Positions 26,083 to 43,867 of a stretch of DNA of 64,000 nt are shown piece after piece (the stretch's first letter is position 1; every line of letters starts with the position of its first letter). Origin of the DNA: an uncultured Pseudomonadales bacterium. Lineage in GTDB: Bacteria > Patescibacteriota > Microgenomatia > UBA1400 > PJMF01. The notes under the pieces are model-generated. The model did not search any database and had not been told where the DNA came from. It worked only from the letters and a program-made list of their open reading frames with translations. The DNA lies in NCBI GenBank assembly GCA_964620965.1, contig CAZUHV010000003.1, positions 12,777 through 76,776 of the forward strand. The letters are read 5' to 3'. A program made the position numbers and the translations under genes.

Positions 26083-27849
26083 TTACTTCTTCTCTATATT
26101 AAAAAATGCTCCACCACAACTATTCCCAGACCATTGTGGAATTCTCAAATTACCTGGTGCACGAAGGTTAAATGCTTTACAAAACTGGTCACCACTCATG
26201 CTTACCCCATTAATAGAAATTGAATTCGTTCTACCATCTCCTAAAGTAACAGAAACACTATTTGCAGCAGAAATTCCTCCATACTTACTTGCAACATCTT
26301 TAAGCTCACCTAATGAATATGGGTTTCCTCCCCAACACTCAGTTGTAACAGGGCTAATTCTTTCTGTTTCTCCAGAATTTCCTTTAGTCAAAACCAAGTG
26401 AGCATTCACAATATCTGCCATCTCTTCTGGACTTAACCAAGGATTTGACCTTCCACAAGTAGAACCACTCGCTGTATATCCAGCTCTCCACCAAGCTTTA
26501 TATAACCAAGGTGAGCCTCCAATATTTTCATAGGCTTTATCAATAAAATTACTCCCACCCCCACCATCTGTAGTATCCCAGCTTCCAGTTGTTGACCAAC
26601 CGCCATGTGTTGAGGCGTAGAACGTTGTTACATCTTCCAGAACTTGACCTTTTGTCTGATCAACAGCATCTTTCCATGCTTGGGGAGGATTATCTGATTT
26701 CGACTTATTAAATACCTGGCAGCTCTCTGTTGTACAAATCGTATTTCCATCTTTTTTATATCGCAAAGCAAATGTACGAGCTGCAACAGCCTGAGCTTTT
26801 AATGCCTCACTATGCCAACTTGATGGCATTTCAGCAATTCCATATAAATAAGTTGTTTCAAAATCCATAGATCCATAGCCAGAAACTGAAATATTCCCAC
26901 TAGTTTCTCCAGATTTATCTACTGGTTCCTTTCCAAAATACTCATTGAGAATTTGTTTAAAGTTCTGCCCAGATTCAGCACGACCACGTGCTCCATATTG
27001 ACTCATCCCTTTTCTATGGCTATATGCTCCAAATGAGAAAATTGCAAAATACCCTCCTGGTGCCTGCTCTCTAAATCCTTTGATTGATGCTAAATAGTCA
27101 TCCGCCAACTCAATATCACCTATAGAAGCAGTAAATCCACCACTCCTTGCATTTATAATTTCTTGCTGTCTTGCAGAGAGATCTGCAATCTTTCCTGTTA
27201 ATTCCTGTTGGTAGTCTTTTGCTTTACTAATTTCCACTTTAAAAAACTTCGCTTGTTCGTCTAGTTGTTTTTCTAAAGCAGCAAGCTGCACTTGATTGTC
27301 GGCAAGTTTTTGTTTATCTGCTTGTAAATTAGCAATATCTTCACCAATAGCTTTGATAAACTGATTATCCTGATTTTTCACAGATTCTCTATATGCTAAG
27401 TCTTTTGAAAGGTCTGATGCCGATTCGCTAGCTAAAACCGCAATTAGTGGAGAGTATGTCCTGAGGCGTTTATACTGTCGTGCAATTCTTCTGGAAAAAA
27501 TCTGGTACTGAACTGAAAGATCCTTTTCCCTTTGCTCAATTTGTTCTGCTAAATCCGCTTCTTCTTGTTTCGCTTTTGTAATTGAGAATCGTGCATTTGA
27601 AATTCTTTTTTCTAGTGAACTTACTTCTGCTTCCAAAGGTTTTGTTGCATCTTCAGAAAGTCGCTTGAGTTTTTCTAGTTCGTCAATTTGTTTTTGAAGT
27701 TCTTCAACCTCATCTGCAAAAACTTGTCCAACTAGAGAACTTAAAAAACTAAAATTGAAACGACTTGTTTTAGAGAGAAAACTCAGTTGTATACCTACAA
27801 TAATAAGCAATACCAAAAACAACTGAACCATTCTTTTCAGTTTATCCAT
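26083..27849 (-). CDS. SpoIID/LytB-domain protein with a long N-terminal coiled-coil
   Basis: Signal anchor, then about 200 aa of heptad-rich sequence, then a SpoIID-type region ...SWHSEALKAQAVAARTFALRY. Confidence 0.7.
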   Translation of the reverse strand: MDKLKRMVQLFLVLLIIVGIQLSFLSKTSRFNFSFLSSLVGQVFADEVEELQKQIDELEKLKRLSEDATKPLEAEVSSLEKRISNARFSITKAKQEEADLAEQIEQREKDLSVQYQIFSRRIARQYKRLRTYSPLIAVLASESASDLSKDLAYRESVKNQDNQFIKAIGEDIANLQADKQKLADNQVQLAALEKQLDEQAKFFKVEISKAKDYQQELTGKIADLSARQQEIINARSGGFTASIGDIELADDYLASIKGFREQAPGGYFAIFSFGAYSHRKGMSQYGARGRAESGQNFKQILNEYFGKEPVDKSGETSGNISVSGYGSMDFETTYLYGIAEMPSSWHSEALKAQAVAARTFALRYKKDGNTICTTESCQVFNKSKSDNPPQAWKDAVDQTKGQVLEDVTTFYASTHGGWSTTGSWDTTDGGGGSNFIDKAYENIGGSPWLYKAWWRAGYTASGSTCGRSNPWLSPEEMADIVNAHLVLTKGNSGETERISPVTTECWGGNPYSLGELKDVASKYGGISAANSVSVTLGDGRTNSISINGVSMSGDQFCKAFNLRAPGNLRIPQWSGNSCGGAFFNIEKK

Positions 27850-27978
27850 ATTGTTCGTATTGTACTTAGAATAGGGCTAAATATCTACTTACGTAACTAT
27901 AACAAACATACTCATTTGGTATGCATTTGTACTCTGGCATGTATTTAATTTATACAGTACAATATAACTACTTGAAAT

Positions 27979-29187
27979 ATGAAGAAAATACTACATATTT
28001 TTATTGCTTTTATTTTTCTTAGTTTTGCATTTTTTGGTGGAACAAAACAGGCGTATGCACAATCTGCTTGTACTTCGGCAATCAGAGCAAGCTTTAGTAT
28101 GAGTAACTGGGCTCCTTCATATGGAGGATCTTTTTTGGCAGGAGTAGATGCTTCCCCAGTAAACCCAACATTTTCTGGTTTAACTGCTAACAGCCAGTAC
28201 GTATTAACTTGTCAAAAAAAACAACTGTTTGGTTGGAGTTCTAATTTGGCCTCTTGGAATTTTTCAGCTAATGCAAGTGGAACTGGGACTGTTAATATCT
28301 CTAACAACAGTGTCTGTTGGGAAGACAAAGATGATTATCGGTTAATGATTGTTATCCAGTCAAGCGGTGCCAGTTGTCTAGTCCAAGAATATGAGGTTCT
28401 TGATCAATCAGAGGGAGTACGGTGTGTTACTAAAAGTGCAACAAACGCAAGCGGTCAATCTGGATGTTTTGAACAAAATGAACAAATTAATTGGAGTTTT
28501 GAAGTCGTTAATGGAGACGGAACTCCATATACAGACGAATTAATGGTGAGAACAACAAATGTTTATGGTGGAGGACTTGGGGCAGGCAGGATATTCAGTA
28601 ACCCTTCTGGGGTCATTACCGGCACTGATACTGCGATAGAGCTATATGAAGATGTCCCTGAAGATTACAACACAAGTATTGTTTACACAGTGTTTGCTGA
28701 AGCGGATATTCAAAAACAAATTGCAAGTTGTACTTTATATGCAGGGAATGTAAAACAGGACATGTGTACAGAGGATGACTATGAAAATGGGGCCACTCCT
28801 GGAGTAGACACCTTTTCACTTTGTGACCAAATTCCTGAACAATTTGAGGAACAAAAAACAAGCTGTAAAATCTGTACTGAAGGTGAGGGTGAAAACGAAG
28901 CTAACAAAGGTGTCTGGACAGCAATAGGCTGTATAAAAAGAGAACCTCAAGCGATTATGCAAAGACTTATTACAGTTGGACTAGGTATTTCTGGAGGTGT
29001 CGCCCTTCTCACTTTCCTTGCTGCTGGATTCATCTTTAGTACCTCACAAGGAGATCCAAAAGCTTATGGAAAAGCCAAAGAAATGATGACCGCCGCTATT
29101 GTAGGAATAATTTTTGTAATATTTTCAGTAACAATACTACAATTCATAGGATATGAGGTACTCAAAATACCTGGATTTGGTGGATAA
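27979..29187 (+). CDS. Secreted Cys-rich protein with a C-terminal T4SS-pilin-like (VirB2/TrbC-type, CPR pilin family) two-helix domain
   Basis: The signal peptide ends AYAQ. An ectodomain of about 300 aa follows. The C-terminus ...GISGGVALLTFLAAGFIFSTSQGDPKAYGKAKEMMTAAIVGIIFVIFSVTIL matches the conserved core of the pilin paralogs at 40.7-44.3 kb. Confidence 0.6.
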   Translation: MKKILHIFIAFIFLSFAFFGGTKQAYAQSACTSAIRASFSMSNWAPSYGGSFLAGVDASPVNPTFSGLTANSQYVLTCQKKQLFGWSSNLASWNFSANASGTGTVNISNNSVCWEDKDDYRLMIVIQSSGASCLVQEYEVLDQSEGVRCVTKSATNASGQSGCFEQNEQINWSFEVVNGDGTPYTDELMVRTTNVYGGGLGAGRIFSNPSGVITGTDTAIELYEDVPEDYNTSIVYTVFAEADIQKQIASCTLYAGNVKQDMCTEDDYENGATPGVDTFSLCDQIPEQFEEQKTSCKICTEGEGENEANKGVWTAIGCIKREPQAIMQRLITVGLGISGGVALLTFLAAGFIFSTSQGDPKAYGKAKEMMTAAIVGIIFVIFSVTILQFIGYEVLKIPGFGG

Positions 29188-29189
29188 TT

Positions 29190-29645
29190 ATGAAACTAGT
29201 TTCTAACTTAAAAAAAATATCAATTGTATTACTGTTATTAATTTTAGTTTGCTTTGCATCTCCTGCTGTTTCCTTTGCCCAAGAAGAAAATGGTGAAGGT
29301 AATGTAAACATGCAAGGCACAATACTTGAAGGCCCAAATAATGGCTTTTTCGACGCCATGAACCCACTTAAAACAGAGGGCTCTCCTGTAGCAGAACAAC
29401 TTTCTACACCCGGTGGAATTGTTTCTAGAGTTTTGAACTTCCTCTTTCCACTTGCTGGACTAGTCTTATTTGTAATGTTAGTCTGGGGTGGTTTTGAAAT
29501 TTTATCAAAGTCATCTCAAGGTACAAAAGGGGTCGAAGCTGGCAGAAACAGAATTACCGCAGCAATCGTTGGGTTCATTTTACTTTTTGCTACCTATTGG
29601 ATGGCTCAAATTATTGAGATTGTCTTTGGAATTGTGATCGTTTAA
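29190..29645 (+). CDS. T4SS pilin-like protein (VirB2/TrbC-type, CPR pilin family)
   Basis: The signal peptide ends SFAQ. The core is ...LVLFVMLVWGGFEILSKSSQGTKGVEAGRNRITAAIVGFILLFATYW. It starts 3 nt after the preceding gene. Confidence 0.65.
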   Translation: MKLVSNLKKISIVLLLLILVCFASPAVSFAQEENGEGNVNMQGTILEGPNNGFFDAMNPLKTEGSPVAEQLSTPGGIVSRVLNFLFPLAGLVLFVMLVWGGFEILSKSSQGTKGVEAGRNRITAAIVGFILLFATYWMAQIIEIVFGIVIV

Positions 29646-29744
29646 ATTATTGTCAAAAAAATTTGGCTAAGTAGACAAAAATTGCATCCAGCATTTTTTT
29701 TCTACTAATTTGTGTAACTCAAACTATATTTTTTTAATGAAAAA

Positions 29745-30464
29745 TCAACCTTTTCCAAAACGTCGGTTTCTTCTGTTGAATTCTAGTATCGCCGCATCTA
29801 ATTCTTTTTCATGCATATCTGGAAATGGATAATCCACAAAAATGAATTCCGAGTACTGTTGTTGCCAAGACATAAAGCCAGACATTCTTTGCTCGCCACT
29901 CGTTCGTAATATGAAATCTGGGTCGGGCATATCTGCAGTATCTAAATGACTTGCTACGACTGCATCAGTAATATCTTCTGGCTTTAATTTCCCTTCAAGA
30001 ACTTCTTGAGCAATTTTTTGGGTTGCGCGTCTAATCTCATCTCGTCCACCATAGTTCATTGCCAACGTTACCGTGATTTTAGTATTTTCTTTTGTAAGTT
30101 TTTCACCTTTAACAATTCTCTCTTGAATATCTTCCGCAAACCCAGTGATATCACCAATCATATTAAATCGAACCCCTTTTTCTTTCCAACCATCAATCTG
30201 CTTATCAAAAATATCTCTAAAAAGATTCATTAAGAAATCGACCTCTATTTTGTCACGGTCCCAATTTTCTGTACTAAAAATCCAAAAAGTTAGATATTTG
30301 ACTCCAATTTTTGCAGCATAATCAATGAGCTCTTCAAAGTTTTCTGTAACTGCTCTTTTATGTCCTGCAAAGACTTTTAACCCTCTTGCTTTTGCCCATC
30401 TTCTATTACCATCGCAAATGACTGCAATATGTGTCGGAATTTGACCTAGATCTTCTTTTTTCAT
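29745..30464 (-). CDS. uppS: Isoprenyl transferase (undecaprenyl diphosphate synthase)
   Basis: HIAVICDGNRRWA... Confidence 0.9.
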   Translation of the reverse strand: MKKEDLGQIPTHIAVICDGNRRWAKARGLKVFAGHKRAVTENFEELIDYAAKIGVKYLTFWIFSTENWDRDKIEVDFLMNLFRDIFDKQIDGWKEKGVRFNMIGDITGFAEDIQERIVKGEKLTKENTKITVTLAMNYGGRDEIRRATQKIAQEVLEGKLKPEDITDAVVASHLDTADMPDPDFILRTSGEQRMSGFMSWQQQYSEFIFVDYPFPDMHEKELDAAILEFNRRNRRFGKG

Positions 30465-31718: not shown

Positions 31719-32708
31719 TTAAAACAAATGCTCTTGAATTTCTTTTGGCTTATCACCCACTTTTGCAGTTAGTGTTTTTACAACTAAGGACAAATTATTT
31801 AATCGTTCCTGCACTGCATCTTGGAATTTAGGTAAAGTCAAAATATGTAAATTAAAGCCAGTGTTAATAGTAAAATAACACTCAATTCCTTCTTCACGTA
31901 ATTTTTCGACCTCTTGCATTACCTGCAAAGTGCCTGGATACCATAAAATTAAAGGAACCTCACTTGTTAGTAAAATGCTATGAAATTCTAGCGCTTCTGC
32001 TTCAACAATCTTTCCTAGTTTTGTAAAATTCTTTTCTTTGATAGCAGATTTAACTGCTTCAATTTTTGCTTTGATATTATTTTGTCTTACCTCAAAAAAT
32101 GGGCTTGATTGTGCAGATTCATGTCCTTCAGTTGAGCTAATTTTTTTTTGGCCTTCATCTACTACTGCAACAACATCCCTAATATCCCAATGATCTTTGT
32201 CGAAAATTGTATGTGAATATGAAGTTTCTGAAGTATCTCCGTCTAACCATTCAACAAATCCCCCACATGCACATCTGCAAGCTGTTCCAGAAGCTTGTCG
32301 AGACAAAATACTCAATTCTTTTTCAGATAATTCTAAATCCAATGCTTTTGCAGCTGCATAGGTAAGTGCTGCCATACCAGAACCAGAACTAGAAAGTCCT
32401 GTTCCTCTTGGAAAAGTGTTTTTTGAAACAACTTTTGCTTTCAAATCTACGTTTGCTAGTTTTCGCATTCTATCAAGATGTTTTATAACTCGTTTCGCTT
32501 CTCTGGAAATTACTTCAATTTTTTTATCTTGAATGTACACTTCATCTTCAGAGAATGATTCACTAAACTCAACTGTTGTAATGGTATCCATGCCATCTAA
32601 AATGATTGAAATGCTACCATTTTCAGGTAGACGCAAAACTTCATCTTTTTTACCCCAATACTTGACCAAAGCAATATCACTAGAAGCTTTAATTGTCGTT
32701 TTTCTCAT
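31719..32708 (-). CDS. mvaD: Diphosphomevalonate decarboxylase
   Basis: ...IALVKYWGKKDE... The ORF track starts at 32768. The internal Met at 32708 (MRKTTIKAS) has an AGGA Shine-Dalgarno and avoids a 56-nt overlap with the upstream gene. Confidence 0.8.
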   Translation of the reverse strand: MRKTTIKASSDIALVKYWGKKDEVLRLPENGSISIILDGMDTITTVEFSESFSEDEVYIQDKKIEVISREAKRVIKHLDRMRKLANVDLKAKVVSKNTFPRGTGLSSSGSGMAALTYAAAKALDLELSEKELSILSRQASGTACRCACGGFVEWLDGDTSETSYSHTIFDKDHWDIRDVVAVVDEGQKKISSTEGHESAQSSPFFEVRQNNIKAKIEAVKSAIKEKNFTKLGKIVEAEALEFHSILLTSEVPLILWYPGTLQVMQEVEKLREEGIECYFTINTGFNLHILTLPKFQDAVQERLNNLSLVVKTLTAKVGDKPKEIQEHLF

Positions 32709-32712
32709 AAAA

Positions 32713-33714
32713 TTATTCCTCTGTCTTGCTTTCGATTCTGACACCTTCAGCATTAATAGCAACATCAATTACTTTACCATCGATTTTTTCTAATTCTTCT
32801 CTAACATTTTCTAATTTGTCTTCACTAGCAACGGCTAAAATACAGTCCCCACCTGCTGCGCCAGAAGAAGTTGCACCATATGCACCCGCGTCAATGGCTG
32901 TAGAAATGAGCTGTTCAAGTCTATTATTACTCACACCTAACTCTCGAGCACATTCTTGAGATTCATTAAATAAATCTCCAATTTTTTTCCAATCACTATG
33001 TTCTGCAGACTCGACAAAATCTTCTGCAACTGCAGCAATGCGTTTAAAAACTGTGTCAATTTTTTCTGGATTTTTTTCTAATTTACTATTTACAACCCTG
33101 ATAAGGGTTGGAGTATCAGCTTTTTCTCCAGAGTATGCAATTACTAATGGAATGTTTTTTGCCTTTATTTCCTTAACAACTTTCGCAGGACTTACATAGT
33201 ATAGTGAGCCTCCCCAAATTGCGGCAGCCAGATCATACCCAGATCCAACACCTTGAACTTCAATTACTGCTTCATAACATAAGTCAAATAATTCCTGATT
33301 TGTAAGCTCCAAACCATATAAAGTTGTTAGGGCTTTTGCAAATGCTACTGTTACCGCACTACTTGAACCAAAACCATAGGTACTAGAAAAATCACTTCTT
33401 GTTGTGACAATAATACCTTCTTTTTGTGGATGTAATTTCAAAAAATTCTTATACAAAATTTCGATAAATCGAACGGCCTTTGGTAAGTCTTTTTTACCTA
33501 GATCTGCCATGCTTTTTGTATATGACGACAAACCTAAATCTGGAGCGTCTAAATGAAACACATCAACTCCATTCTTTGTAACTGTAGCAAATAAACGCTG
33601 GTCAACTGCTGTAACTACAGTTGGATATCCATGAACAACTGCATATCCAACAGAAAGCATTAATTTTCCAGGAGCAGAAGCAGTAACTTGTTTTATATTT
33701 TTATTTTTGATCAT
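32713..33714 (-). CDS. Phosphomevalonate kinase (GHMP kinase)
   Basis: SAPGKLMLSVGYAVVHG...GFGSSSAVTVA. Confidence 0.65.
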   Translation of the reverse strand: MIKNKNIKQVTASAPGKLMLSVGYAVVHGYPTVVTAVDQRLFATVTKNGVDVFHLDAPDLGLSSYTKSMADLGKKDLPKAVRFIEILYKNFLKLHPQKEGIIVTTRSDFSSTYGFGSSSAVTVAFAKALTTLYGLELTNQELFDLCYEAVIEVQGVGSGYDLAAAIWGGSLYYVSPAKVVKEIKAKNIPLVIAYSGEKADTPTLIRVVNSKLEKNPEKIDTVFKRIAAVAEDFVESAEHSDWKKIGDLFNESQECARELGVSNNRLEQLISTAIDAGAYGATSSGAAGGDCILAVASEDKLENVREELEKIDGKVIDVAINAEGVRIESKTEE

Positions 33715-33731
33715 AATCTAAACAGAACTTT

Positions 33732-34604
33732 CTATTTTACCTCAGTTTCAATATTTTCCCAAGCATTTTCCTTACATAAATTGTTTACACTACTCAAATC
33801 TTTTGAGTATACAAGCAACCAACCAGAACCTGTTTGAATTCCACCAGCTCCGGTAATTTTTACATGAGCATCTGTTTTCCTAATTTCTGCAATCATTTTT
33901 TTTGCAGTTTCTCCAACAACTCCAAGTTTTTCCAGTTCCGTTTGGTTTTTATCTAATAAATCTCCAGAAAATATACCAGTATTGAGTTCTGCATATATGC
34001 TTTTACTAATTTTGCCAATTTTTTGTATGGTTTTTTTTAGTTCAGGCTCCTTTTTAATTTTTCCTGCAACAAACGAAACCATTTCTCCCGTAGACTCTGT
34101 TGCTTTTCCAGAATTGATTAACAAAAAAACATATTTTTTTGGCAAACTCATTTTTCGTTTTTCAAACTTTCCAGTTTCTAAATCTCGTCTAAATGAGTGC
34201 ACTCCTCCATATACAACTGCACAGGGATCAATTCCGCTAGGTTTTTTATGGATAAAAACTTCTGAATCAAGAACTAACTGAAACATTTCATCTTTTGGAA
34301 TAGAAATATTAAAAAAATCAGCCAGTGCTTGTAATACAGCATGTGCAAAAGCAGCAGAAGAACCAAGCCCAGAATTTTCTGGTATTTCTGATTTTACCTG
34401 TAACTTCAAAAATGAAGTATCTACACCATATTCTTTTTCAAATAAATCTAAAATATGTGATTCATACTCAGATCTTTCTGGTTTTATAGCAACTTTAGAA
34501 ACTGTAACAGTAATTGTTTTTTTCAAACTAGAAACTAGAGCTAATTCTCCGTGTACAACACTATGCTCCCCAGTAATAATGAATTTTCCGTAACTTTGAT
34601 TCAT
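33732..34604 (-). CDS. Mevalonate kinase (GHMP kinase)
   Basis: GKFIITGEHSVVHG...GLGSSAAFAHAV. Confidence 0.7.
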   Translation of the reverse strand: MNQSYGKFIITGEHSVVHGELALVSSLKKTITVTVSKVAIKPERSEYESHILDLFEKEYGVDTSFLKLQVKSEIPENSGLGSSAAFAHAVLQALADFFNISIPKDEMFQLVLDSEVFIHKKPSGIDPCAVVYGGVHSFRRDLETGKFEKRKMSLPKKYVFLLINSGKATESTGEMVSFVAGKIKKEPELKKTIQKIGKISKSIYAELNTGIFSGDLLDKNQTELEKLGVVGETAKKMIAEIRKTDAHVKITGAGGIQTGSGWLLVYSKDLSSVNNLCKENAWENIETEVK

Positions 34605-34740
34605 AAAAAAATTCTCAATAAATTGAGATATACATATAGTCGTAAAAAAATCTTAAAATCATGCAAATTACTTATTAAAATTGAACTTGTTGGAGCAAAA
34701 TTTCTATCTAATATAGCAAAAAACTATATTTATAAGAAAA

Positions 34741-35037
34741 CTATAATTTAACAGCCTTGAGGGTATATGGAATTATCGATATTTGATCTGGAATTTCAGC
34801 TTTTCGTAGTTCTAATCGAACCTGATCACCTATTTCAAATATTATTTGAGCCTCTCCCATAACTTCAATTTTTTTTCCAGAATCTAAAACTACAAGTAAA
34901 AAACAGTACGGCAAGAATGGTTCAAGTTCTGGAGTTGTTACCTCGACCTTTGTTACAAACTCAACAACACCAGTTTTACCTAGTAACTTATGCCAATTTT
35001 GACTTTCTCTATAGTACTTTGCAGGATATGCACTCAT
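34741..35037 (-). CDS. DUF35 OB-fold protein, small partner of archaeal-type thiolase/HMG-CoA synthase
   Basis: 98-aa ORF lying immediately downstream of the thiolase. The sequence is OB-fold-like. Confidence 0.5.
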   Translation of the reverse strand: MSAYPAKYYRESQNWHKLLGKTGVVEFVTKVEVTTPELEPFLPYCFLLVVLDSGKKIEVMGEAQIIFEIGDQVRLELRKAEIPDQISIIPYTLKAVKL

Positions 35038-35051
35038 CTTTTACCTCAACT

Positions 35052-36290
35052 TTACTGTTGTATCTCTTTACTCAAAATATGCACTACCGCTGTTGCCCCA
35101 CTTCCCCCAACATTATGTGCAAGTGCATATATTTTTTTACTCGATTTAGATTTATTTTGCGTTGATCCATTTTTTTCATAAGACTTTTCTAGTAATTGTG
35201 CCAAAAATGCAACTTGTTTTACTCCAGTAGCACCAACTGGATGTCCGCATGCTTTTAAACCTCCAGATGGGTTTATCACAACAGAACCACCATAGGTTGT
35301 TTGCCCATCAGCAACAGCCACCCCTCCCTTACCCTTTTTGAAAAAACCTAAGTCTTCGATTGCCAAAATTTCTGCAATCGTAAAACAATCATGAACTTCA
35401 GCATACGAAATATCTTTCGCAGATATATTGGCTTGTGTATATGCCTGTTGTGCCGCCAGCTTTGTTGCTCGTAACTCAAGTAACGACTCTCTGTCTGCAA
35501 GAGCTAGCGTGTCTTGGGCATGGCCAACAGCTTCAATTACAACTTTCTTGGAATATTTTTTGATATCTTTTGTGGTTAATATAACTGCAGCGGCACCATC
35601 AGAAATTGGTGAACAATCAAAAATTCGCAGAGGTTCTGCCACCATAGTACTTTTGCTAATCACTTCAACAGGAATTTCTTTTCTAAACTGAGCAGTTTTA
35701 TTTCCTAAAGCATGTATGTGATTTTTGTGTGCAACTTGAGAAAGTTGTTCCCTCGTTGTGCCAAACTCATTCATGTGAGCTTGAGCAAGTAATCCATACA
35801 ATGCAGGGAAAGTACTCCCAAACTCTTTTTGATACTCACTGGCTCCTGCAAGAATTTTTGTGGATTCTCCGACAGAAACATCTGTCATTTTTTCTGCACC
35901 AACTACAAGTACTGTTTTGTATTTGCCAGCTTGTAAGGCTGTTTCTGCTAGTTCAAGTGCAATACTTCCAGATGCACAAGCTGCCTCAACCCTAAATGCT
36001 GGCGGATTATGAGGTAACATCTGAGAAACTAGTGCATTTAAGTGGGATTGGTTCGCAAACTCACCTCCAGACATGTTTGCAACAAATACTGCATCAATCT
36101 CCAAAGAATTAAACTTCGACTGAGGCAACTTTATTCCATATTCATGTGTAACTACTCTATTTTTAAACGTAACACCATCTATCGAGTTTAGAGCTCCAAA
36201 CACAGCTTCTTCAAACAAACTCTCTAACGACCTCTGCCACAGCTCGCCAAACTTTGTTATATAGCTGCCAATTATTCTAATTTTTTTCAT
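35052..36290 (-). CDS. Acetyl-CoA C-acetyltransferase (thiolase, archaeal/SCP-x-like type)
   Basis: Thiolase fold with active-site Cys near AACASGS and C-terminal ...GHPVGATG. Confidence 0.8.
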   Translation of the reverse strand: MKKIRIIGSYITKFGELWQRSLESLFEEAVFGALNSIDGVTFKNRVVTHEYGIKLPQSKFNSLEIDAVFVANMSGGEFANQSHLNALVSQMLPHNPPAFRVEAACASGSIALELAETALQAGKYKTVLVVGAEKMTDVSVGESTKILAGASEYQKEFGSTFPALYGLLAQAHMNEFGTTREQLSQVAHKNHIHALGNKTAQFRKEIPVEVISKSTMVAEPLRIFDCSPISDGAAAVILTTKDIKKYSKKVVIEAVGHAQDTLALADRESLLELRATKLAAQQAYTQANISAKDISYAEVHDCFTIAEILAIEDLGFFKKGKGGVAVADGQTTYGGSVVINPSGGLKACGHPVGATGVKQVAFLAQLLEKSYEKNGSTQNKSKSSKKIYALAHNVGGSGATAVVHILSKEIQQ

Positions 36291-36333
36291 GTATTACTTT
36301 TTTGCTTAACTTCCGCCTGTGCATTTTTACCTA

Positions 36334-37434
36334 TTAGCTTTTCTTTTGCCAACTCTTTCTTGCTAAAACTAACTGTTTTGTAGTCTCAAAAATAAATGCA
36401 TCACTCCCAGAACCAGATCCATATGATGCAACCAATATTTTTTTATTCTCTTTTGCTACTTCTAATGTATTTGCCAATCCCAACATACTCGCACCAGCAT
36501 ACGTATTTCCAATAGTCTTTACTAACAAACTAGGCTCTAATTTTTCTAATGGTATTTCCATTTTCTTTGCAAAAGCTGTTGGGAACTTTTCATTTGGAGT
36601 ATGAAACACAAAATAATCTATATCTGAAATTTTCAAACCAGTCTCTTGTAAAATTTGTGAAACAGAAAGAAAAATATGTTTAAAATATCCCGGTTCTGCG
36701 GTAAACCTTCCCGCATGTTCAGGATGTTCTTGTTGTGGTCTTCTCCAAAAATCAGGTGTATCTGTTGCAACTGAAGTTGTTGCTAATAACCTTGCAAGCA
36801 ATCTATTTTCTTTTTTACCACTCGATTCTGAACCTAAAATAAATGCCGCTCCACCGGCAGATGCTGTATATTCAAGTACATCTCCAGATTTTGCCTGAGC
36901 AGTATCTGCTCCTATCGCTAATGCATAATCAGAAAAACCAGAAAGTACATATAGAGCAGAAATTTGCAAAGCTTGAGTTCCAGCCTTACACGCAAACTGT
37001 AGGTCTGCTAAAGCAAGTGGTTTTACAAGATTACTAGAATTATCACTTACAAAGCCTTCATTTTCAATAAAACTGTCTGATGCAATTCCAAGTGCTTGAG
37101 CTACGACTGTTCCCGAAGGCTTAACTGCATACGGATGACTTTCACTCCCAATAAAAATTGCTCCAATTTGCTTTTTTACAGCGCCAACTAAGCCGCCTCT
37201 GTTACCAACTAAACCTTCTAACCTTTGGATCGCTTCAAATCCAGCCGCTGTTGCAATAGTAATAGTGTCTTCATCACTGTTTGGAACGCTTTTAGAAATA
37301 ACTCCTAAAGATGCGTAAATCTTTTGGGTTTCTTTTCCTTGTTTTTTGGCAATTTTTGCACCAGTTATTCTTTCCTTTGGAATTCTCAGTCCATACGAAA
37401 CAATGCCAACTGGTTTTTTACTAGTAAAAATCAT
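36334..37434 (-). CDS. Hydroxymethylglutaryl-CoA synthase (archaeal-type)
   Basis: Thiolase-like condensing-enzyme fold. Position between the thiolase and HMGR genes. ...GSESHPYAVKP... Confidence 0.7.
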   Translation of the reverse strand: MIFTSKKPVGIVSYGLRIPKERITGAKIAKKQGKETQKIYASLGVISKSVPNSDEDTITIATAAGFEAIQRLEGLVGNRGGLVGAVKKQIGAIFIGSESHPYAVKPSGTVVAQALGIASDSFIENEGFVSDNSSNLVKPLALADLQFACKAGTQALQISALYVLSGFSDYALAIGADTAQAKSGDVLEYTASAGGAAFILGSESSGKKENRLLARLLATTSVATDTPDFWRRPQQEHPEHAGRFTAEPGYFKHIFLSVSQILQETGLKISDIDYFVFHTPNEKFPTAFAKKMEIPLEKLEPSLLVKTIGNTYAGASMLGLANTLEVAKENKKILVASYGSGSGSDAFIFETTKQLVLARKSWQKKS

Positions 37435-37442
37435 ATATTTTT

Positions 37443-38735
37443 CTAAGATTTTGTAAGTTTTGCTCTTCCAAGTTTTTTGTGAGCACTTGCCAGAGTGTCT
37501 GTTGTTAGAGCAGCCAAACCAGAAATTTCTCCGGCAAGAGCTGCTATACCTGCCCCTATCGCTAAGTCTTCTGCTTTTACTTCAATTTGTTTTTTTATTG
37601 TTTTTCCATTATTTTTTTCTACTTCTTGTATGTCTTCTTGCCCTGAAAAATTTCTCAGCAGAAACCTTGCCTGAGTTTGTTTTGGTAACCAAGTTCCACC
37701 TCCTACACTTCCAACACTTACATTTGGTAAAGTGAGCGCTACATACAAAAAATCATCAACTACTTCAAAATGAACACTTGCTTCACTCCCTGCAACTACA
37801 TGTGCAATATCCTGGCCAGTTGCTAGATAAAAGGCTCCTAAAGCATTCGCTACGTGCATATTTTGAGCAAACGAACCTGCAACATTACTCCCAATCACAT
37901 TTTTTACTAAATGTGTTTTTACGAGTCTCTTTGCGTCAACTTTTAGTAAAGGCTCTACATCAATAAGCTTAATTTTTGTTTCGACTGTTACAAAATATCC
38001 ACGTCCCTTGATTCTATTGATCATTGAATCTTTTTTATCTGTACACACATTCCCGGAAACAGTTAGTAAAGAAACCCAAATAGAATCGGGAAGTTGACGC
38101 TTAAACTTATCCCAGGCATATGAAAGTGCAATTGTAACCATGTTCATCCCCATTGCCTGATCTGTATCAAATACAAATCGGTAGTACAAAAGCTTATCTC
38201 GCATATATGATTCATAACTTAAAAATTTTAGGTGAGAACTCGTTTCTTCACAAAATTGAGCAAAAAGTGAGATGTTTTTTGAAAAATATTCCTCAAAAAT
38301 GACCGCGTCCTCTATTGAACCGCACTCGAAAACTACCGATCTACTCATGCCAATTTTCTTAACAATCACGGTTGTTTTTCCAGAATTTAAAACTTTAACT
38401 CCTCGTTGTATCGAAGCAACAAGTGCTCCTTCTGTTGTAGCAAGAGGAATAAAAAATGTCTTTTTTTCTTCTGATTTATCAGATTTAGTTGCATCAGAAA
38501 TATAAACTGATGTAACTGTGACTGGACCAGCAACTCCAACAGGAACCTCTACAGACCCAATATAATTTTCGCAGTTTTTTGTTCCAACTTCCTGAGGTAA
38601 ACTCGTCTCAAACAAAACATTCAGTTCTTTTTTAGAAATATCTGTAGCATCACAAATAAATTCTTGCCTTAATTCGCGTTTTTGATCTTCAGATAGTGTT
38701 TTGTCTCTAATATACAAAGACTGAGTTTTCGTCAC
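37443..38735 (-). CDS. Hydroxymethylglutaryl-CoA reductase (class I type)
   Basis: ...TTEGALVASIQRG..., DQAMGMNMV and GTVGG motifs. Confidence 0.85.
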   Translation of the reverse strand: MTKTQSLYIRDKTLSEDQKRELRQEFICDATDISKKELNVLFETSLPQEVGTKNCENYIGSVEVPVGVAGPVTVTSVYISDATKSDKSEEKKTFFIPLATTEGALVASIQRGVKVLNSGKTTVIVKKIGMSRSVVFECGSIEDAVIFEEYFSKNISLFAQFCEETSSHLKFLSYESYMRDKLLYYRFVFDTDQAMGMNMVTIALSYAWDKFKRQLPDSIWVSLLTVSGNVCTDKKDSMINRIKGRGYFVTVETKIKLIDVEPLLKVDAKRLVKTHLVKNVIGSNVAGSFAQNMHVANALGAFYLATGQDIAHVVAGSEASVHFEVVDDFLYVALTLPNVSVGSVGGGTWLPKQTQARFLLRNFSGQEDIQEVEKNNGKTIKKQIEVKAEDLAIGAGIAALAGEISGLAALTTDTLASAHKKLGRAKLTKS

Positions 38736-38839
38736 AAAACATTAGTCGGAAAAACAAACAATATTCACGCAAAATTTAAATCATTACTCAAAACTAATTA
38801 AGTAAAAAAAACCAATTTTCACTTTGTTTTCAGCGAATA

Positions 38840-39514
38840 CTATGAAAAAAGTTCTTTAAAAGCATCAAAAAGTCGTGCGTTTTTTAACATTAAAACTGTC
38901 CAAGGAGCTAATAAAAATTCTTTTTCAGAAACAATGACTTGTACCGTTGGTGTTTTTTCTTTTAATTCCCGAGTATCAAGAATAGCAAGCGTTTGTTCTG
39001 CGGCTATGTACTCCATTGTTGATACTGTTGAATATAGTTCTTTGAAATCAACCCAGCACACTTCACTTACTTCTTCCTTATTTATATGAAGCTGTTGGTT
39101 TAATAAACCAACATACACTTGGTCTATTTCGTGTTCACCATAGATATCATTTCCATATGCTTTATAAGAAAACTTAAAAGTTGGCTTTACAGAAACTCCT
39201 TTTAATCCTAACTCTTTATCCAGCCTTCTGTTTACACAATCATAAAAGGTTTCAGTTGGCCAAGCGTTTCCACAGGCAGAGTTTGCCCACCATCCGGCAC
39301 CAACAATTTTTTTATCACTTCTTTTTTGTAATAATACTTCACCCTTTGAATTAAATAACCAAACAGAAATTGCTAAGTGCAGTTTTGAAGGGTATTTATG
39401 AGCCTCAAATTTATCTTCTGGACCAATAAATGTGCCATCTGGCTCGACCAAACTTACTTCATCTTTTGCTATGAGTATCTCTCGTATTGTTTTATTTTGT
39501 GTGTCTGTATTCAT
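38840..39514 (-). CDS. idi: Isopentenyl-diphosphate delta-isomerase, type 1 (Nudix fold)
   Basis: ...SVWLFNSKGEVLLQKRS...WANSACGNAWPTE...RRLDKELGL. Confidence 0.7.
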   Translation of the reverse strand: MNTDTQNKTIREILIAKDEVSLVEPDGTFIGPEDKFEAHKYPSKLHLAISVWLFNSKGEVLLQKRSDKKIVGAGWWANSACGNAWPTETFYDCVNRRLDKELGLKGVSVKPTFKFSYKAYGNDIYGEHEIDQVYVGLLNQQLHINKEEVSEVCWVDFKELYSTVSTMEYIAAEQTLAILDTRELKEKTPTVQVIVSEKEFLLAPWTVLMLKNARLFDAFKELFS

Positions 39515-40049: not shown

Positions 40050-40574
40050 TTAAATTACTAACCATAGTTCCTTAAATTCTTTGCGAGCCCTAAAAAGATC
40101 TGACTCTATAGATTTGCTACTCTTCCCTAATTCTTTTGCAATGACAGCAACTTTCTTTTCATCTGCATATTTCAAAAGTAGTAATTCACTATAGTCTGCT
40201 CGCATATGTGAAAGCACTTGTCTCACCTTTTGAGAAACTTCATCACTATCAGAGATTTGATTTATCGGAATTAACTCAGAGAGCGGAATTGTTTTTAATG
40301 CTTTTTTTGCGTACTTCTTCCTAAAGTAATCTGATATCTCATGCCGAGCAATAGAGTTCATCCAAGTCCAAATACTTGATTTTCCCAAAAAAAGTGGCAA
40401 ATGCTTAAGACAATTTAAAAATGTCTGTTGAGTAATTTCTTCAGCATCTTTTTTATTAGAAACCTTGACCTCAACAATTCGTAGTAACCTAATAAAATAA
40501 AGGTCAAACCAAGTTTTAACCGCAGATTCATCACCAGTTTTTAGCTGAGCTATAAGTTCTGTATCTTCTATCAT
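40050..40574 (-). CDS. RNA polymerase sigma factor, ECF subfamily
   Basis: Region 2 (...DLYFIRLLRIV...ITQQTFLN...) and region 4 helix-turn-helix (YSELLLLKYADEKKVAVIAKELGKSSKSIESDLFRARKEFKEL). Confidence 0.65.
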   Translation of the reverse strand: MIEDTELIAQLKTGDESAVKTWFDLYFIRLLRIVEVKVSNKKDAEEITQQTFLNCLKHLPLFLGKSSIWTWMNSIARHEISDYFRKKYAKKALKTIPLSELIPINQISDSDEVSQKVRQVLSHMRADYSELLLLKYADEKKVAVIAKELGKSSKSIESDLFRARKEFKELWLVI

Positions 40575-40672: not shown

Positions 40673-41047
40673 ATGTTTTTTGGAATAATACCTACAGTAT
40701 TTGCTCAAGAGGAAGTCAGCCCTTGTGGTGCTGGCAACGGAGGTATTAATCTTGGAAACTGTCTCAAACTTTCTGATAGTACTAGAGTTAGTGCTACCTA
40801 CGATACACCAGCATTTTTAGTTAATCTTATTATTAGTAACTTATTTGTTGTTGCTGGAGTAATTTTTTTCTTAATGTTAATTGTTGCAGGATTCAAGTTT
40901 ATTACTGGTGGCCAAAAAGGTGCTGAAGAAGCAAAAAATATTATAACTACTTCTCTAATCGGTTTTATTATTATGTTTGCAGCCTACTGGATTATCCAAA
41001 TTGTTGCATTGTTAACTGGTATTACAATTCCTGGAGTAAGCACCTAA
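40673..41047 (+). CDS. T4SS pilin-like protein, paralog 1 of 8
   Basis: Short leader MFFGIIPTVFAQ. Core LFVVAGVIFFLMLIVAGFKFITGGQKGAEEAKNIITTSLIGFIIMFAAYW. C-terminus GITIPG. Confidence 0.6.
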   Translation: MFFGIIPTVFAQEEVSPCGAGNGGINLGNCLKLSDSTRVSATYDTPAFLVNLIISNLFVVAGVIFFLMLIVAGFKFITGGQKGAEEAKNIITTSLIGFIIMFAAYWIIQIVALLTGITIPGVST

Positions 41048-41048
41048 T

Positions 41049-41456
41049 ATGACATTTTTTAAAATTCCAACCGTCTACGCTCAAACTGATCCCAACGAAC
41101 TTGTCGGAGATTTGGAAATTCCTAAGGGTGTAGATCTCATAAACCAAGATGCTGGTGGAATTGGAGTAATTTTATTTATTTCAAACATGATCAAGTTTGT
41201 CATTATTCTTGGAGGAATCTGGGCATTAATTAACATTATTTTTGCTGCATTTGCATATCTTACAGGAGGTGGGAAAGCAGACTCACACACTAAAGTTAAA
41301 GATAGATTTACTATGAGTATTATCGGGCTTATCTTAATGATTGTAGCGTATACAGTCGCTGCACTGGTTGGACAAATTTTCTATGGAGATCCAAACTTTA
41401 TTTTAAACCCAACATTAGAAGCTATTGCACAACCAACACCGACCCCAACACCATAA
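41049..41456 (+). CDS. T4SS pilin-like protein, paralog 2 of 8
   Basis: Leader MTFFKIPTVYAQ. Core ...ILGGIWALINIIFAAFAYLTGGGKADSHTKVKDRFTMSIIGLILMIVAYT...FYGDPNFILNPTLEA. C-terminus is a PT tail. Confidence 0.6.
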   Translation: MTFFKIPTVYAQTDPNELVGDLEIPKGVDLINQDAGGIGVILFISNMIKFVIILGGIWALINIIFAAFAYLTGGGKADSHTKVKDRFTMSIIGLILMIVAYTVAALVGQIFYGDPNFILNPTLEAIAQPTPTPTP

Positions 41457-41457
41457 T

Positions 41458-42057
41458 ATGAAAGTACTACTAATAAAAACACTTAGAAACTTTATACTTA
41501 CCTTCTTTACAGGACTTCTGTTTGCAGGAGTATTTTTTTCGGCAACTCTTATTTCTCCAAAACCTACTCTTGCTGCTTGCAGATATGCAGGCCAATGTGA
41601 TGATAATAGTATTTGTAGATGCCGAGAAGATTTAAATCCAATCGCTTGTTACTACATGGTTCGGTATGGAGATCCAGAGTCTGCATTAGTTCATAGTGAC
41701 GAAGCTTGTGGTTCTGCAATTATCGGTGGGGTTGAACCACCAGATGCAGTTGCAGCAATTAACCAGCAATCTGGCGGAGATATTGGCTTAATTTTCTTTA
41801 TTTCCAGAATAATAAATTTTGCCAATATTATAGCTGGGATCTTGGTCATGATTAATTTTGTCTACTCAGGATTTCTGTATGTTACAGGGGCTGGAAATGC
41901 TTCAAATATGTCTAAAATTAACGAAAGAATGATGTGGAGTGTTGTTGGGATATTAATGATCGTTGGATCTTATACACTTGCAGCAATTTTTGGATTGGTA
42001 TTCTACGGAGACCCAACATTTGTTATCAACCCAACTTTAACAGGAGCACTTAACTAA
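41458..42057 (+). CDS. T4SS pilin-like protein, paralog 3 of 8, with a Cys-rich N-terminal insertion
   Basis: The start is taken at MKVLLIKT; the ORF track starts at 41425, overlapping the previous gene. A 6-Cys segment CRYAGQCDDNSICRCREDLNPIACYY...EACGS precedes the pilin core. The C-terminus FYGDPTFVINPTLTG is shared with paralog 2. Confidence 0.55.
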   Translation: MKVLLIKTLRNFILTFFTGLLFAGVFFSATLISPKPTLAACRYAGQCDDNSICRCREDLNPIACYYMVRYGDPESALVHSDEACGSAIIGGVEPPDAVAAINQQSGGDIGLIFFISRIINFANIIAGILVMINFVYSGFLYVTGAGNASNMSKINERMMWSVVGILMIVGSYTLAAIFGLVFYGDPTFVINPTLTGALN

Positions 42058-42087
42058 TTACTTGGTATATAATAGAAAAGAATACAT

Positions 42088-42465
42088 ATGATACTACCTA
42101 CACTTATCGCACAATTTGGGGAAGGATTTAAATCTCAATCCCCTCTTACAGACGGAGCAGAACTAGATCCAGGAAAAAACCTTGAACTTATTCTTTCTAA
42201 TGTCTTTGGATTTTTCACTATTATTGGAGGAATTTTCTTTATCGTATACTTTTTAATTGCAGCAATGGAATGGATTACCTCTGGTGGTGATTCTGGGAAA
42301 CTAACCAACGCAAGAAACAAAATGATGCAAGGAATTCTTGGTTTAGTTATTTTGGTTGCTGCATATGGAATACTTGGAATCATTGGTAGCTTAATTGGTA
42401 TCAACCTACTAACTCCTGCAGCACTTTTGGATACAATCACTCCAGGACAAGGAGGAGGAAACTAA
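42088..42465 (+). CDS. T4SS pilin-like protein, paralog 4 of 8
   Basis: Leader MILPTLIAQ. Core IGGIFFIVYFLIAAMEWITSGGDSGKLTNARNKMMQGILGLVILVAAY. Confidence 0.65.
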   Translation: MILPTLIAQFGEGFKSQSPLTDGAELDPGKNLELILSNVFGFFTIIGGIFFIVYFLIAAMEWITSGGDSGKLTNARNKMMQGILGLVILVAAYGILGIIGSLIGINLLTPAALLDTITPGQGGGN

Positions 42466-42470
42466 ACCCT

Positions 42471-42905
42471 ATGAAAATAACAAAAAAAATATCAGCTCTC
42501 GCACTATCTGCAACAACATTTTTAGCCATTACCCTCCCTGTTTTTGCACAAACCGAAGGCACCGGAATTACTAATCCTGTGATTGGAGGACTTGGAGATA
42601 ATCCAGAAACAGCTGCCACTGGAGAACTAGCAACAAACTATTTCGTAGATATTTGGAATACACTTATTAGTATAGGTGGATTGGTAGTCATTGTTATGTT
42701 CCTTTGGGGAGCTCTCGAATGGATTACCGCAGGCGGGGATTCTGGAAAAATAGAAAAAGCTCGAAACAAAATTACTCAAGCTATCATAGGTTTAGTTATT
42801 TTAGTTAGCTCATTTGTAATTCTTGGCTTTATCAGTCAAGTGTTCTTTGGAGATGAGTTCTCTATCTTGAATTTAACATTCACAAGGCCAGGAGGAACTG
42901 AATAA
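42471..42905 (+). CDS. T4SS pilin-like protein, paralog 5 of 8
   Basis: The signal peptide ends PVFAQ. Core WGALEWITAGGDSGKIEKARNKITQAIIGLVILVSSF. Confidence 0.7.
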   Translation: MKITKKISALALSATTFLAITLPVFAQTEGTGITNPVIGGLGDNPETAATGELATNYFVDIWNTLISIGGLVVIVMFLWGALEWITAGGDSGKIEKARNKITQAIIGLVILVSSFVILGFISQVFFGDEFSILNLTFTRPGGTE

Positions 42906-43342
42906 TGAAAAAATTACTTATAGCTTTTTTAATTGGTTTAGGTATTTTCTTTAGCTATACAACGTTGGCAAGCCACTCTTATTCACAAGTATTTGCACAA
43001 GCAGATGTCCAACTTGATTTTGGGGGCATTGCAAAAGATAAAGAAGTCATTGGCACTGCAGATTATAACCCAGCAGACGGTGGGGCTGGTTTTGGAGCTC
43101 TAATTGGAAGAATTTTAAACATCGTAATAGTAATCGCAGCACTCATGCTATTCTTAATGCTTCTTTGGGGTGGCTTTGAATGGATTACCTCTGGTGGTGA
43201 TAAAGGTAAAGTTGAAAAAGCAAGAAACAGAATCACTCAGTCAATTATTGGAATGATTGTTTTGGCGGCAACTATTGCAATTTTTGCAATACTACAAACA
43301 GCACTTGGATTTGAAGTGCTTACCTTTACTGCAGGAGCATAA
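42905..43342 (+). CDS. T4SS pilin-like protein, paralog 6 of 8
   Basis: The signal peptide ends QVFAQ. Core WGGFEWITSGGDKGKVEKARNRITQSIIGMIVLAATIA. TAATG overlap with paralog 5. Confidence 0.7.
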   Translation: MKKLLIAFLIGLGIFFSYTTLASHSYSQVFAQADVQLDFGGIAKDKEVIGTADYNPADGGAGFGALIGRILNIVIVIAALMLFLMLLWGGFEWITSGGDKGKVEKARNRITQSIIGMIVLAATIAIFAILQTALGFEVLTFTAGA

Positions 43343-43385
43343 ATACTAAAACATAGCGCCTTATTTAAAATAAAAAATTACAAAC

Positions 43386-43414
43386 TTGCAGTATGTATCA
43401 AGTACAAGTATAAT
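43386..43414 (+). promoter_or_regulatory. Near-consensus sigma-70-type promoter (TTGCAG-17 nt-TATAAT) upstream of pilin paralog 7
   Basis: TTGCAG at 43386-43391, a 17-nt spacer, then TATAAT at 43409-43414. The RBS AGGAAA lies about 8 nt before the ATG at 43463. Confidence 0.45.
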
Positions 43415-43840: not shown

Positions 43841-43867
43841 TACAAATTAATTTTTGATTTTAAAAAA

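Follow-up and report, generated by a model that had tools for sequence, protein, structure and literature searches.

A stretch of 64,000 nucleotides (nt) from contig CAZUHV010000003.1 of assembly GCA_964620965.1 (positions 12,777 to 76,776), hereafter the window, comes from a member of the Microgenomatia within the Patescibacteria and carries two adjacent genes for pilin-like proteins. The first, BIGPIL (27979–29187, plus strand), encodes a 402-amino-acid (aa) secreted protein in which a large cysteine-rich ectodomain precedes a helical hairpin that groups by its sequence with PF18895, a family of type IV secretion system (T4SS) pilins. The second, PIL2 (29190–29645, plus strand), encodes a second pilin of 151 aa. 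Both were defined from the list of open reading frames (ORFs), from matches to PF18895 from AlphaFold2 (AF2) models and from their homologs. The two genes form the conserved 5′ head of a Microgenomatia-type T4SS pilin operon, and the ectodomain lies in a recombination cassette that differs between otherwise nearly identical strains. There is, in our estimate, an even chance that BIGPIL is a low-copy, pilus-presented specificity or adhesin subunit.

Much of bacterial diversity falls within the Patescibacteria, and their cultivated members live attached to host cells. To our knowledge, neither VirB5 nor PrgB adhesins have been found in them, and VirB6 and VirB3 homologues are hard to find in the T4SSs of Microgenomatia. 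We also know of no large folded domain carried on a VirB2-type pilin hairpin. In the defining papers on the Patescibacterial T4SS, the pilins are small and encoded in arrays (PMC10633639, PMC12102498). The T4SS and its pilin array are essential for host-attached life in the one system tested, the cultivated relative Ca. Southlakia (Wang et al. 2023, PMC10633639), and a survey of Patescibacterial T4SSs detected no adhesin (Quinonero-Coronel et al. 2025, PMC12102498). A full-text literature search found no description of a pilin–ectodomain fusion, of the BIGPIL–PIL2 pair or of its SpoIID neighbour, and the architecture of BIGPIL is, as far as could be found, previously undescribed.

BIGPIL starts with a Sec-type signal peptide (residues 1–27; 27979–28059), read by eye from an MKK n-region, a hydrophobic core and an A-x-A motif, and modelled as a helix over residues 2–19. 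Cleavage is predicted between AYA and QS, and A27 is at least 90% conserved in the family alignment. Two tandem immunoglobulin (Ig)-like β-sandwich domains follow, at about residues 28–143 and 144–262 (28060–28764), both of them hypervariable and recognised from the AF2 model, Foldseek and profiles. They are joined to the pilin module by a Cys-rich connector of 58 aa (residues 263–320; 28765–28938), delimited by conserved cysteines and the model. The PF18895 hairpin itself spans residues 321–394 (28939–29160) according to Pfam, AF2 and hhalign, and in the model consists of a helix (323–355), a polar and basic loop (STSQGDPKAYGKAKE) and a second helix (360–394). In the preliminary description of this DNA, the protein was taken to end with that hydrophobic helix, but an 8-residue conserved tail (KIPGFGG) succeeds it; the near-invariant C-terminus, visible in the family alignment, reads EVLKIPGFGG (29161–29184). 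All of these features lie on the plus strand.

The AF2 model was built from the family alignment and has a mean predicted local distance difference test score (pLDDT) of 84.9. It contains the signal helix, β-sandwiches at about 35–141 and 147–259, the connector at 265–320 and the two long helices. The connector is modelled as short helices and a β-hairpin holding five conserved cysteines (C263, C282, C296, C299 and C318), which suggests a disulfide-type element, and it includes the motifs F.LC.QIP and GVWTAIGCI. The mature ectodomain (residues 28–320) contains 12 Cys, or 4.1% of its residues, compared with 0.96% in 37 other proteins of the window. The Cys-rich secreted ectodomain of about 300 aa fused to a pilin domain that had been noted earlier is thus borne out. 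The pilin core had been placed in the last ~85 aa; the pilin match holds, while the module measures about 80 aa and is preceded by the 58-aa conserved connector.

The assignment to PF18895 (T4SS_pilin) rests on several comparisons. Measured against the gathering cut-off of 26.6 bits, residues 323–390 of BIGPIL score 32.3 bits (E = 1e-7) and residues 76–135 of PIL2 score 31.7 bits, and 109 of 111 BIGPIL family members have a match to the family. Three profiles were aligned with hhalign: A1, made from 111 sequences of the BIGPIL family; A2, made from 15 array paralogs, 8 from the window and 7 from a relative (locus L009); and A3, made from the PIL2 family. A1 aligned with A2 at a probability of 97.2% and E = 3.5e-11 over 71 columns (BIGPIL residues 321–391), so that the similarity of the C-terminus to the pilin family, first proposed by inspection, persists in a formal profile–profile alignment. 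A3 aligned with A2 at 99.2% (E = 1.8e-19), and BIGPIL with PIL2 at 84% (E = 7e-6). By these scores PIL2 is closer to the array pilins than BIGPIL is. Residue K367 of BIGPIL, at least 90% conserved, aligns with the arginine of an ‘ARN’ motif in the array pilins. BIGPIL and PIL2 share with PF18895 the score, the homology to array pilins, a signal peptide followed by a two-helix hairpin and a T4SS gene neighbourhood, and on sequence grounds BIGPIL is a member of this family.

The ectodomain is predicted with good confidence to consist of two Ig-like β-sandwiches. A Foldseek search of the PDB with the BIGPIL model gave tandem Ig-like matches with E-values around 1e-6 but low template modelling scores, including the MG domains of complement C3, intimin D0–D1 and D1–D3 (6tpl, 1f00), RbmA and Fabs. 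Searched against PDB sequences, profile A1 gave a weak match to intimin 6tpl (E = 0.018). A Pfam scan found no match to Big_1 (PF02369) in the BIGPIL of the window itself; 3 of the 111 family members do match Big_1, the best with E = 1.2e-9, and others match Invasin_D3 or MG4. A search of viral folds in BFVD returned generic Big-1/Ig matches only. The Ig-like fold is frequent in adhesin stalks. When the ectodomain alone was searched against 1.84 billion representative sequences, 35 proteins were retrieved, nearly all with the same architecture, which indicates a family-specific module and not a promiscuous domain. The outlier was a 1607-aa cadherin-repeat protein, probably a compositional or Ig-strand match.

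Several other identities were considered for BIGPIL and rejected. A type IV pilin of the kind found in type IV pili or type II secretion systems does not fit the sequence, which has an A-x-A signal, no G-F-x-x-x-E motif, and its hydrophobic helices at the C-terminal end. Neither BIGPIL nor PIL2 has a VirB5-family match in Pfam or NCBIfam, and the BIGPIL model is a β-sandwich plus hairpin instead of the helical bundle of a VirB5/TraC-type tip protein. An LPXTG sortase signal or a PGF-CTERM anchor was dismissed as well, since IPGFGG lies at the extreme C-terminus past the last helix with no transmembrane segment after it. Across the family, the tail takes the form [KRQ]IPGFGG and sits past the last helix, at the C-terminus or a few residues from it; it may be a processing or docking signal.

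PIL2 follows BIGPIL almost immediately. The spacer, previously given as 3 nt, is 2 nt (TAA at 29185–29187, ATG at 29190), and GGTGGA lies 5 nt upstream of the PIL2 start codon. The protein has a signal peptide (residues 1–30, cleaved by eye between SFA and QEE), a short flexible N-terminal segment and a hairpin with helices at 74–106 and 112–146. Its AF2 model (pLDDT 85.2) has a hairpin like that of BIGPIL. There are 198 PIL2 homologs. In the loci of relatives PIL2 is between 82 and 543 aa long, and the 151 aa of the window is among the shorter forms. Taken together, the N-terminal extensions of all PIL2 proteins that reach 200 aa or more contain 7.2% Cys, and in four loci the extension matches the first Ig domain of BIGPIL (independent E-values 3e-12 to 1.7e-6). 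A pilin gene does follow BIGPIL, as had been reported; this ‘stand-alone’ pilin is a distinct conserved ortholog, which in relatives often has a Cys-rich ectodomain of its own. In two array-less loci, L066 and L089, the extension of PIL2 is made of repeated Cys-rich units (C.C ... CCGW ... C).

The main array (40673–44347, plus strand) contains eight PF18895 pilin paralogs with scores between 17.8 and 43.4 bits. The array pilins are small (120–210 aa), multi-copy and about 25% identical to each other. The first array gene (40673–41047, plus strand) is a paralog of PIL2, with 35% identity (E = 1e-21) that includes the AAYWI.QI motif, and the first array gene is PIL2-like by score in several relatives also, a pattern suggesting that PIL2 duplications built up the array. 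The gradient from BIGPIL through PIL2 to the array, both in similarity and in gene order, points to PIL2 as an adaptor. One array member (41425–42057, plus strand; 210 aa) has its own Cys-rich N-terminal extension, about 100 aa long, and at its longest the ORF begins within the end of the preceding gene. Small ectodomains, in other words, occur within the array too.

The gene order was surveyed in 80 species loci, with ORFs classified by profiles and phmmer. The arrangement of a SpoIID-like gene on the minus strand followed by BIGPIL and PIL2 on the plus strand is nearly universal. Of 67 assessable loci, at least 60 have a SpoIID-like gene as the immediate divergent neighbour; the seven misses are mostly over-extended ORF starts, and a clear lack was seen only in L054 and L079. 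For PIL2, 76 loci could be assessed, and in at least 69 of them it adjoins BIGPIL. What comes after the pair falls into three architectures. In 39 loci, as in the window, it is followed by an opposite-strand block with uppS that often ends in an extracytoplasmic function (ECF) sigma factor, and the array resumes past this block in many of them, where the sequenced flank is long enough. In seven loci (L022, L023, L025, L044, L060, L061 and L085), the array comes directly after the pair and is followed by a gene for a 1173-aa protein. In another 18, the 1173-aa gene and a gene for a polytopic membrane protein come directly after the pair, with no array within 8 kb.

In 25 of 64 assessable loci, then, the pair adjoins either the array or the 1173-aa and polytopic genes with no change of strand. 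Together with the nearly universal order of the SpoIID-like gene and the pair, this contiguity identifies BIGPIL and PIL2 as the head of an operon and not as a satellite. The two genes had been described as a satellite pair about 11 kb from the main array and outside the main locus. The distance is right for the window, where the array starts at 40673, 11.0 kb after PIL2. The label is misleading, as the separation here reflects an intervening opposite-strand block. The question raised earlier, whether the pair is kept beside the T4SS in relatives, is answered in the affirmative by the 18 loci with the 1173-aa and polytopic genes and the seven with the array.

Both of the genes found after the pair in relatives are present in the window. 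The 1173-aa secreted protein (44406–47927, plus strand) has no Pfam or NCBIfam match. The polytopic membrane protein (49248–50915, plus strand; 555 aa) has no Pfam match and is, by position, a candidate analogue of VirB6/PrgH. A VirB4-like or type IV coupling protein-like ATPase (9125–11458, minus strand; DUF87, E = 2.3e-8; TrwB_AAD_bind, E = 3.7e-7) belongs to the same dispersed T4SS and is encoded about 17 kb from the pilin pair.

Homologs of BIGPIL number 383 at E ≤ 1e-3, nearly all of them 380–440 aa long, and are labelled as Patescibacteria (Pacebacteria, Woesebacteria, Microgenomates). Relatives are encoded in at least 153 GTDB species genomes. In the locus survey, the lengths were bimodal, with one group of about 290 aa that has a single Ig domain and mostly belongs to the loci with no array nearby, and another of 380–510 aa. 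Seven cysteines (C31, C133, C163, C282, C296, C299 and C318) and the GVWTAIGC motif are invariant in the family, and C263 is at least 90% conserved. In the tail, P398, G399, F400 and G401 are invariant in 111 sequences. Conservation increases towards the C-terminal end: mean pairwise identity is 19% in each Ig domain, 41.6% in the connector and 62.5% in the hairpin.

The variation of the ectodomain is seen most directly between close strains. Locus L090, a contig from another sample (SRR11524805), was compared with positions 26083–29744 of the window. The two are 95–100% identical at the nucleotide level across the SpoIID gene and the intergenic region beside it, and again in the BIGPIL signal peptide, in the last two thirds of PIL2 and in the downstream spacer. 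In the two Ig domains, identity falls to 48–53% of nucleotides and 20% of amino acids; it is 65% in the connector, 81% in the BIGPIL hairpin and 59% in the PIL2 N-terminus (nucleotides). The divergent tract, about 1.3 kb long and 48–81% identical, runs from residue 28 of BIGPIL to residue 55 of PIL2 and is a recombination cassette that spans both genes. The synonymous divergence (dS) in L090 is 0.06 in the signal peptide and 1.4 in the hairpin, even though the hairpin protein is 93% identical. A second locus, L093, has low dS values in the signal peptide (0.13) and the hairpin (0.05), against 1.34 and 2.53 in the two Ig domains. The variability of the ectodomain is thus due to the import of old, divergent alleles by recombination at conserved arms and not to a burst of point mutations. 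Surface molecules under diversifying or frequency-dependent selection typically show such mosaicism, and a recombination hot spot in the ectodomain suits a surface specificity determinant.

On its upstream side in the window, the pair is flanked by the SpoIID-like gene (26083–27849, minus strand), which encodes a 588-aa protein with a signal or transmembrane segment, a coiled coil and a SpoIID/LytB domain (PF08486, E = 1.6e-19, plus a TIGR02669 match). On the other side lies uppS, a convergent gene identified by a Prenyltransf match; the position between these two genes had been noted from the start and agrees with both domain matches. SpoIID/LytB is a peptidoglycan-remodelling family. The protein could be a cell-wall-remodelling partner of the T4SS, analogous to VirB1, or its position could simply reflect conserved housekeeping synteny. 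The region between the divergent SpoIID-like gene and BIGPIL (27850–27978), an arrangement kept in relatives, presumably contains promoters for both. In a promoter and terminator scan of 27700–29900, the matches, promoter-like ones included, did not exceed what shuffled sequence would give.

The opposite-strand block that fills the 11 kb between the pair and the array contains uppS, a NUDIX gene, a mevalonate operon and an ECF sigma factor (40050–40574). The mevalonate operon (31719–39514, minus strand) looks complete, with genes for 3-hydroxy-3-methylglutaryl coenzyme A (HMG-CoA) reductase, an HMG-CoA synthase-like protein, thiolase, three proteins of the GHMP-kinase fold (one an MVD-like decarboxylase) and a NUDIX/IDI-like protein. 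Relatives such as L009 do not have it at this point, and just about 5 kb separates their array from the pair.

Two large, secreted, Cys-rich proteins are encoded at 370–2421 and 2597–5161 (plus strand), one of 683 aa with 19 Cys and the other of 854 aa with 48 Cys. Both contain repeated Cys modules and Pro/Thr linkers, and at the C-terminus the motif LPATGPADWL precedes a hydrophobic tail that looks like an LPXTG-type sorting signal. The 1481-aa protein encoded at 57755–62200 (plus strand) resembles the PrgK/TraG-type cell-wall hydrolases of monoderm T4SSs; its membrane segments are rich in Gly, and its C-terminal part gives a weak match to the CHAP domain (PF05257, E = 1.6e-4, below cut-off).

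A few loci and records depart from the general pattern. L054 (7509–9772) has two tandem BIGPIL-type genes, of 296 and 443 aa, with no SpoIID-like gene or PIL2 detected nearby, and L079 likewise is without SpoIID-like and PIL2 neighbours. A full locus of the kind typical of Microgenomatia, with the SpoIID-like gene, BIGPIL, PIL2, and the 1173-aa and polytopic genes, occurs in L066 (CP011212.1, 33061–49480), part of a complete genome whose record bears the title ‘candidate division TM6 bacterium GW2011_GWF2_28_16’; either this title is wrong or the locus is present outside Patescibacteria. Many of the metagenome-assembled genomes among loci L011–L087 are titled ‘uncultured Pseudomonadales bacterium’, including isolates HK-STAS-PATE, despite a Patescibacteria-type locus. 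This looks like a systematic taxonomic mislabel in public records.

How BIGPIL might work can be pictured from the VirB2 pilins. After Sec export and cleavage by signal peptidase, the hairpin would sit in the membrane like that of VirB2, with the N-terminus out, the basic loop in and the C-terminus out, and the Ig domains would lie outside the cell. The T4SS would then pull the hairpin from the membrane and add BIGPIL to the pilin polymer. In the T-pilus, VirB2 is U-shaped, with its termini outside and its loop in the lumen, where Arg91 binds phosphatidylglycerol (10.1101/2022.09.25.509369). Since the pilin termini face outward in that structure, the N-terminal ectodomain would be displayed on the exterior, and the Ig domains would project from the fibre. 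BIGPIL would most likely be incorporated first, and because the fibre grows from its base, the first subunit to be incorporated would end up distal. PIL2, whose sequence is nearer to that of the array pilins, would be a dedicated partner pilin that links BIGPIL with the shaft. The ectodomain would bind the surface of a host or partner cell and set specificity, and so supply the role that belongs to VirB5 in diderms and PrgB in monoderms.

The geometry of the T-pilus bears on copy number. The fibre is 76 Å wide, with five subunits per 13.4 Å rise and VirB5 at the tip (10.1101/2022.09.25.509369). From these published values, the outer surface available to each subunit was calculated as about 640 Å2, roughly the cross-section of one Ig domain, which argues for a low copy number and sparse or terminal incorporation, rather than for two Ig domains on each subunit. 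A conserved, machine-facing hairpin combined with a variable, outward Ig part favours a pilus-presented specificity or adhesin subunit. A location right at the pilus tip, suggested by analogy and by this steric estimate, is possible and rather doubtful. A broader model can be put forward tentatively, with less assurance than the adhesin role itself: a VirB2-type pilin lineage acquired its own receptor-binding ectodomain and became the T4SS host-recognition subunit in place of VirB5/PrgB. The cassette would be swapped through its signal-peptide and hairpin arms to retarget the epibiont, and PIL2 would be a co-evolving adaptor and, in some lineages, a second module.

Several points weigh against BIGPIL as a pilus-borne specificity subunit. 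No pilus has been seen for a Patescibacterial T4SS, and reviews treat it as a possibility only. No homology between PF18895 and proven pilus formers could be demonstrated, and BIGPIL is not demonstrably in the VirB2/TrbC/TraA family. In the Pfam scan, PIL2 gave a sub-threshold match to TrbC (PF04956, E = 0.72) and BIGPIL none; the best result among the 111 BIGPIL relatives was a match in a single sequence (E = 0.0033). Profiles A1, A2 and A3 matched no VirB2 or TraA chain among PDB sequences, and Foldseek found nothing significant in the PDB with the PIL2 model, whose hairpin is too simple to discriminate. With about 375 aa and two Ig-like domains, mature BIGPIL is also unlike the small VirB2/TraA-type subunit, whereas mature PIL2 in the window, at about 121 aa, fits a small pilin subunit with no extra domains. 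The Ig-like domains are generic, with no binding site or ligand predicted, and the tip location draws on analogy and a steric estimate. The BIGPIL hairpin, at 60% conservation, exceeds the array pilins on average (49%) and is no more conserved than the best array member (61%), so that the statement that it is far more conserved than the array pilins is only partly true. Finally, dN/dS is below 1 in every region (0.09–0.84 in the ectodomain); positive selection was therefore dropped as the driver, and recombinational allele replacement was kept. Avoidance of phages or predators, instead of host targeting, could drive the swapping.

The first alternative is that BIGPIL does not polymerise at all, but is an envelope component whose hairpin anchors it in, or docks it to, the T4SS membrane complex, with no pilus involved. 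The Ig domains would then form a fixed collar, a stalk or a wall-spanning scaffold around the channel, or an adjacent surface adhesin. Monoderm T4SSs are generally without pili, a Patescibacterial pilus is so far speculation, and no link to structurally proven pilins was found. The hairpin, the connector and the IPGFGG tail are highly conserved, as would suit a component in fixed contact with conserved parts of the machine, and the conserved SpoIID-like cell-wall enzyme next door fits a wall-spanning assembly. However, the module belongs to the same PF18895 family as the multi-copy arrays, two helices of about 33–35 residues exceed what a simple membrane anchor needs, and a fixed scaffold is not expected to swap its outer domains between near-identical strains. 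We consider this explanation unlikely, though it is the strongest of the alternatives.

It is more improbable still that BIGPIL and PIL2 form the core, stoichiometric fibre, decorated with Ig domains, and that the array pilins are lineage-specific, variable accessories. The idea draws on the 18 loci where the pair are the sole PF18895 genes beside the 1173-aa and polytopic genes. Both genes occur in single copy and are conserved more widely than the average array member, and BIGPIL is shorter in those lineages (~290 aa, one Ig domain), which would ease packing. Yet a surface of about one Ig cross-section per subunit in T-pilus geometry is tight for a two-domain ectodomain, arrays might exist elsewhere in those genomes, and the array itself is essential in Ca. 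Southlakia (PMC10633639). That BIGPIL is a generic secreted membrane protein with no tie to the T4SS, given a chance hydrophobic hairpin and a syntenic region of housekeeping neighbours in the window (recF, uppS, the mevalonate pathway), is close to refuted and barely credible: hydrophobic hairpins do yield spurious weak matches, such as one to MatE at E = 1e-4, but PF18895 is matched above cut-off in 109 of 111 relatives, the profile–profile E-value is 3.5e-11, and in 25 species loci the pair directly adjoins array or T4SS genes on the same strand.

As a conserved, single-copy protein of the pilin family with strain-variable Ig-like domains, BIGPIL is a concrete candidate for the recognition element of the Patescibacterial T4SS, and may bear on what that system touches and how its specificity is set. 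Residues 28–320 are predicted to form a soluble domain that could be expressed as a probe for host envelopes, and the ectodomain alleles could serve as a marker for linking symbiont strains to their hosts in metagenomes. Knowledge of the T4SS pilin fold is extended by the large predicted domain carried on the hairpin. The locus of the Microgenomatia T4SS is redefined around a conserved head that consists of the SpoIID-like gene and the divergent BIGPIL–PIL2 pair.

Among known systems, two offer the closest analogies in design. One is the two-domain tip adhesins of chaperone–usher pili, such as FimH, PapG and CfaE, which likewise combine an N-terminal receptor-binding domain with a C-terminal pilin domain. 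FimH-type adhesins are incorporated first and hence lie at the tip, and their adaptors, FimG and FimF, are encoded beside them, much as PIL2 may be for BIGPIL. Their fold and assembly are unrelated to those proposed for BIGPIL: chaperone–usher pilins are Ig-like themselves, assembling by donor-strand exchange through an outer-membrane usher, whereas BIGPIL has a predicted helical hairpin and would act with a T4SS in a monoderm. The minor pilins CofB, TcpB and GspK of type IV pili and type II secretion systems are the other analogy, as low-copy tip initiators with bulky added domains, encoded in a conserved set next to the major pilin. They have a class III signal peptide, an N-terminal helix and a C-terminal extra domain, in contrast to the A-x-A signal and C-terminal hairpin of BIGPIL. 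The ectodomain shares a fold class and a weak sequence signal with the Big_1 domains of intimin and invasin, but it is Cys-rich, and BIGPIL is without their C-type lectin tip domain and β-barrel anchor.

Within T4SSs, the proposed role of BIGPIL parallels the tip function of VirB5, which is a separate helical protein and not a pilin fusion. VirB2, TraA and TrbC resemble BIGPIL in predicted topology and in the helical hairpin, and the basic loop residue (K367, an arginine in the array pilins) recalls Arg91 of VirB2; no significant sequence or fold match to the solved pilins was found for BIGPIL or PIL2. The nearest relatives are the VirB2-like array pilins of Patescibacteria, members of PF18895, which occur in the same phylum and at the same locus and, like BIGPIL, have a signal peptide and two long hydrophobic helices with a polar, basic loop between them. 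BIGPIL differs from them in being a single-copy protein of about 400 aa, with some 235 aa of Ig-like sequence, a 58-aa connector and an IPGFGG tail, encoded together with PIL2 upstream of the array.

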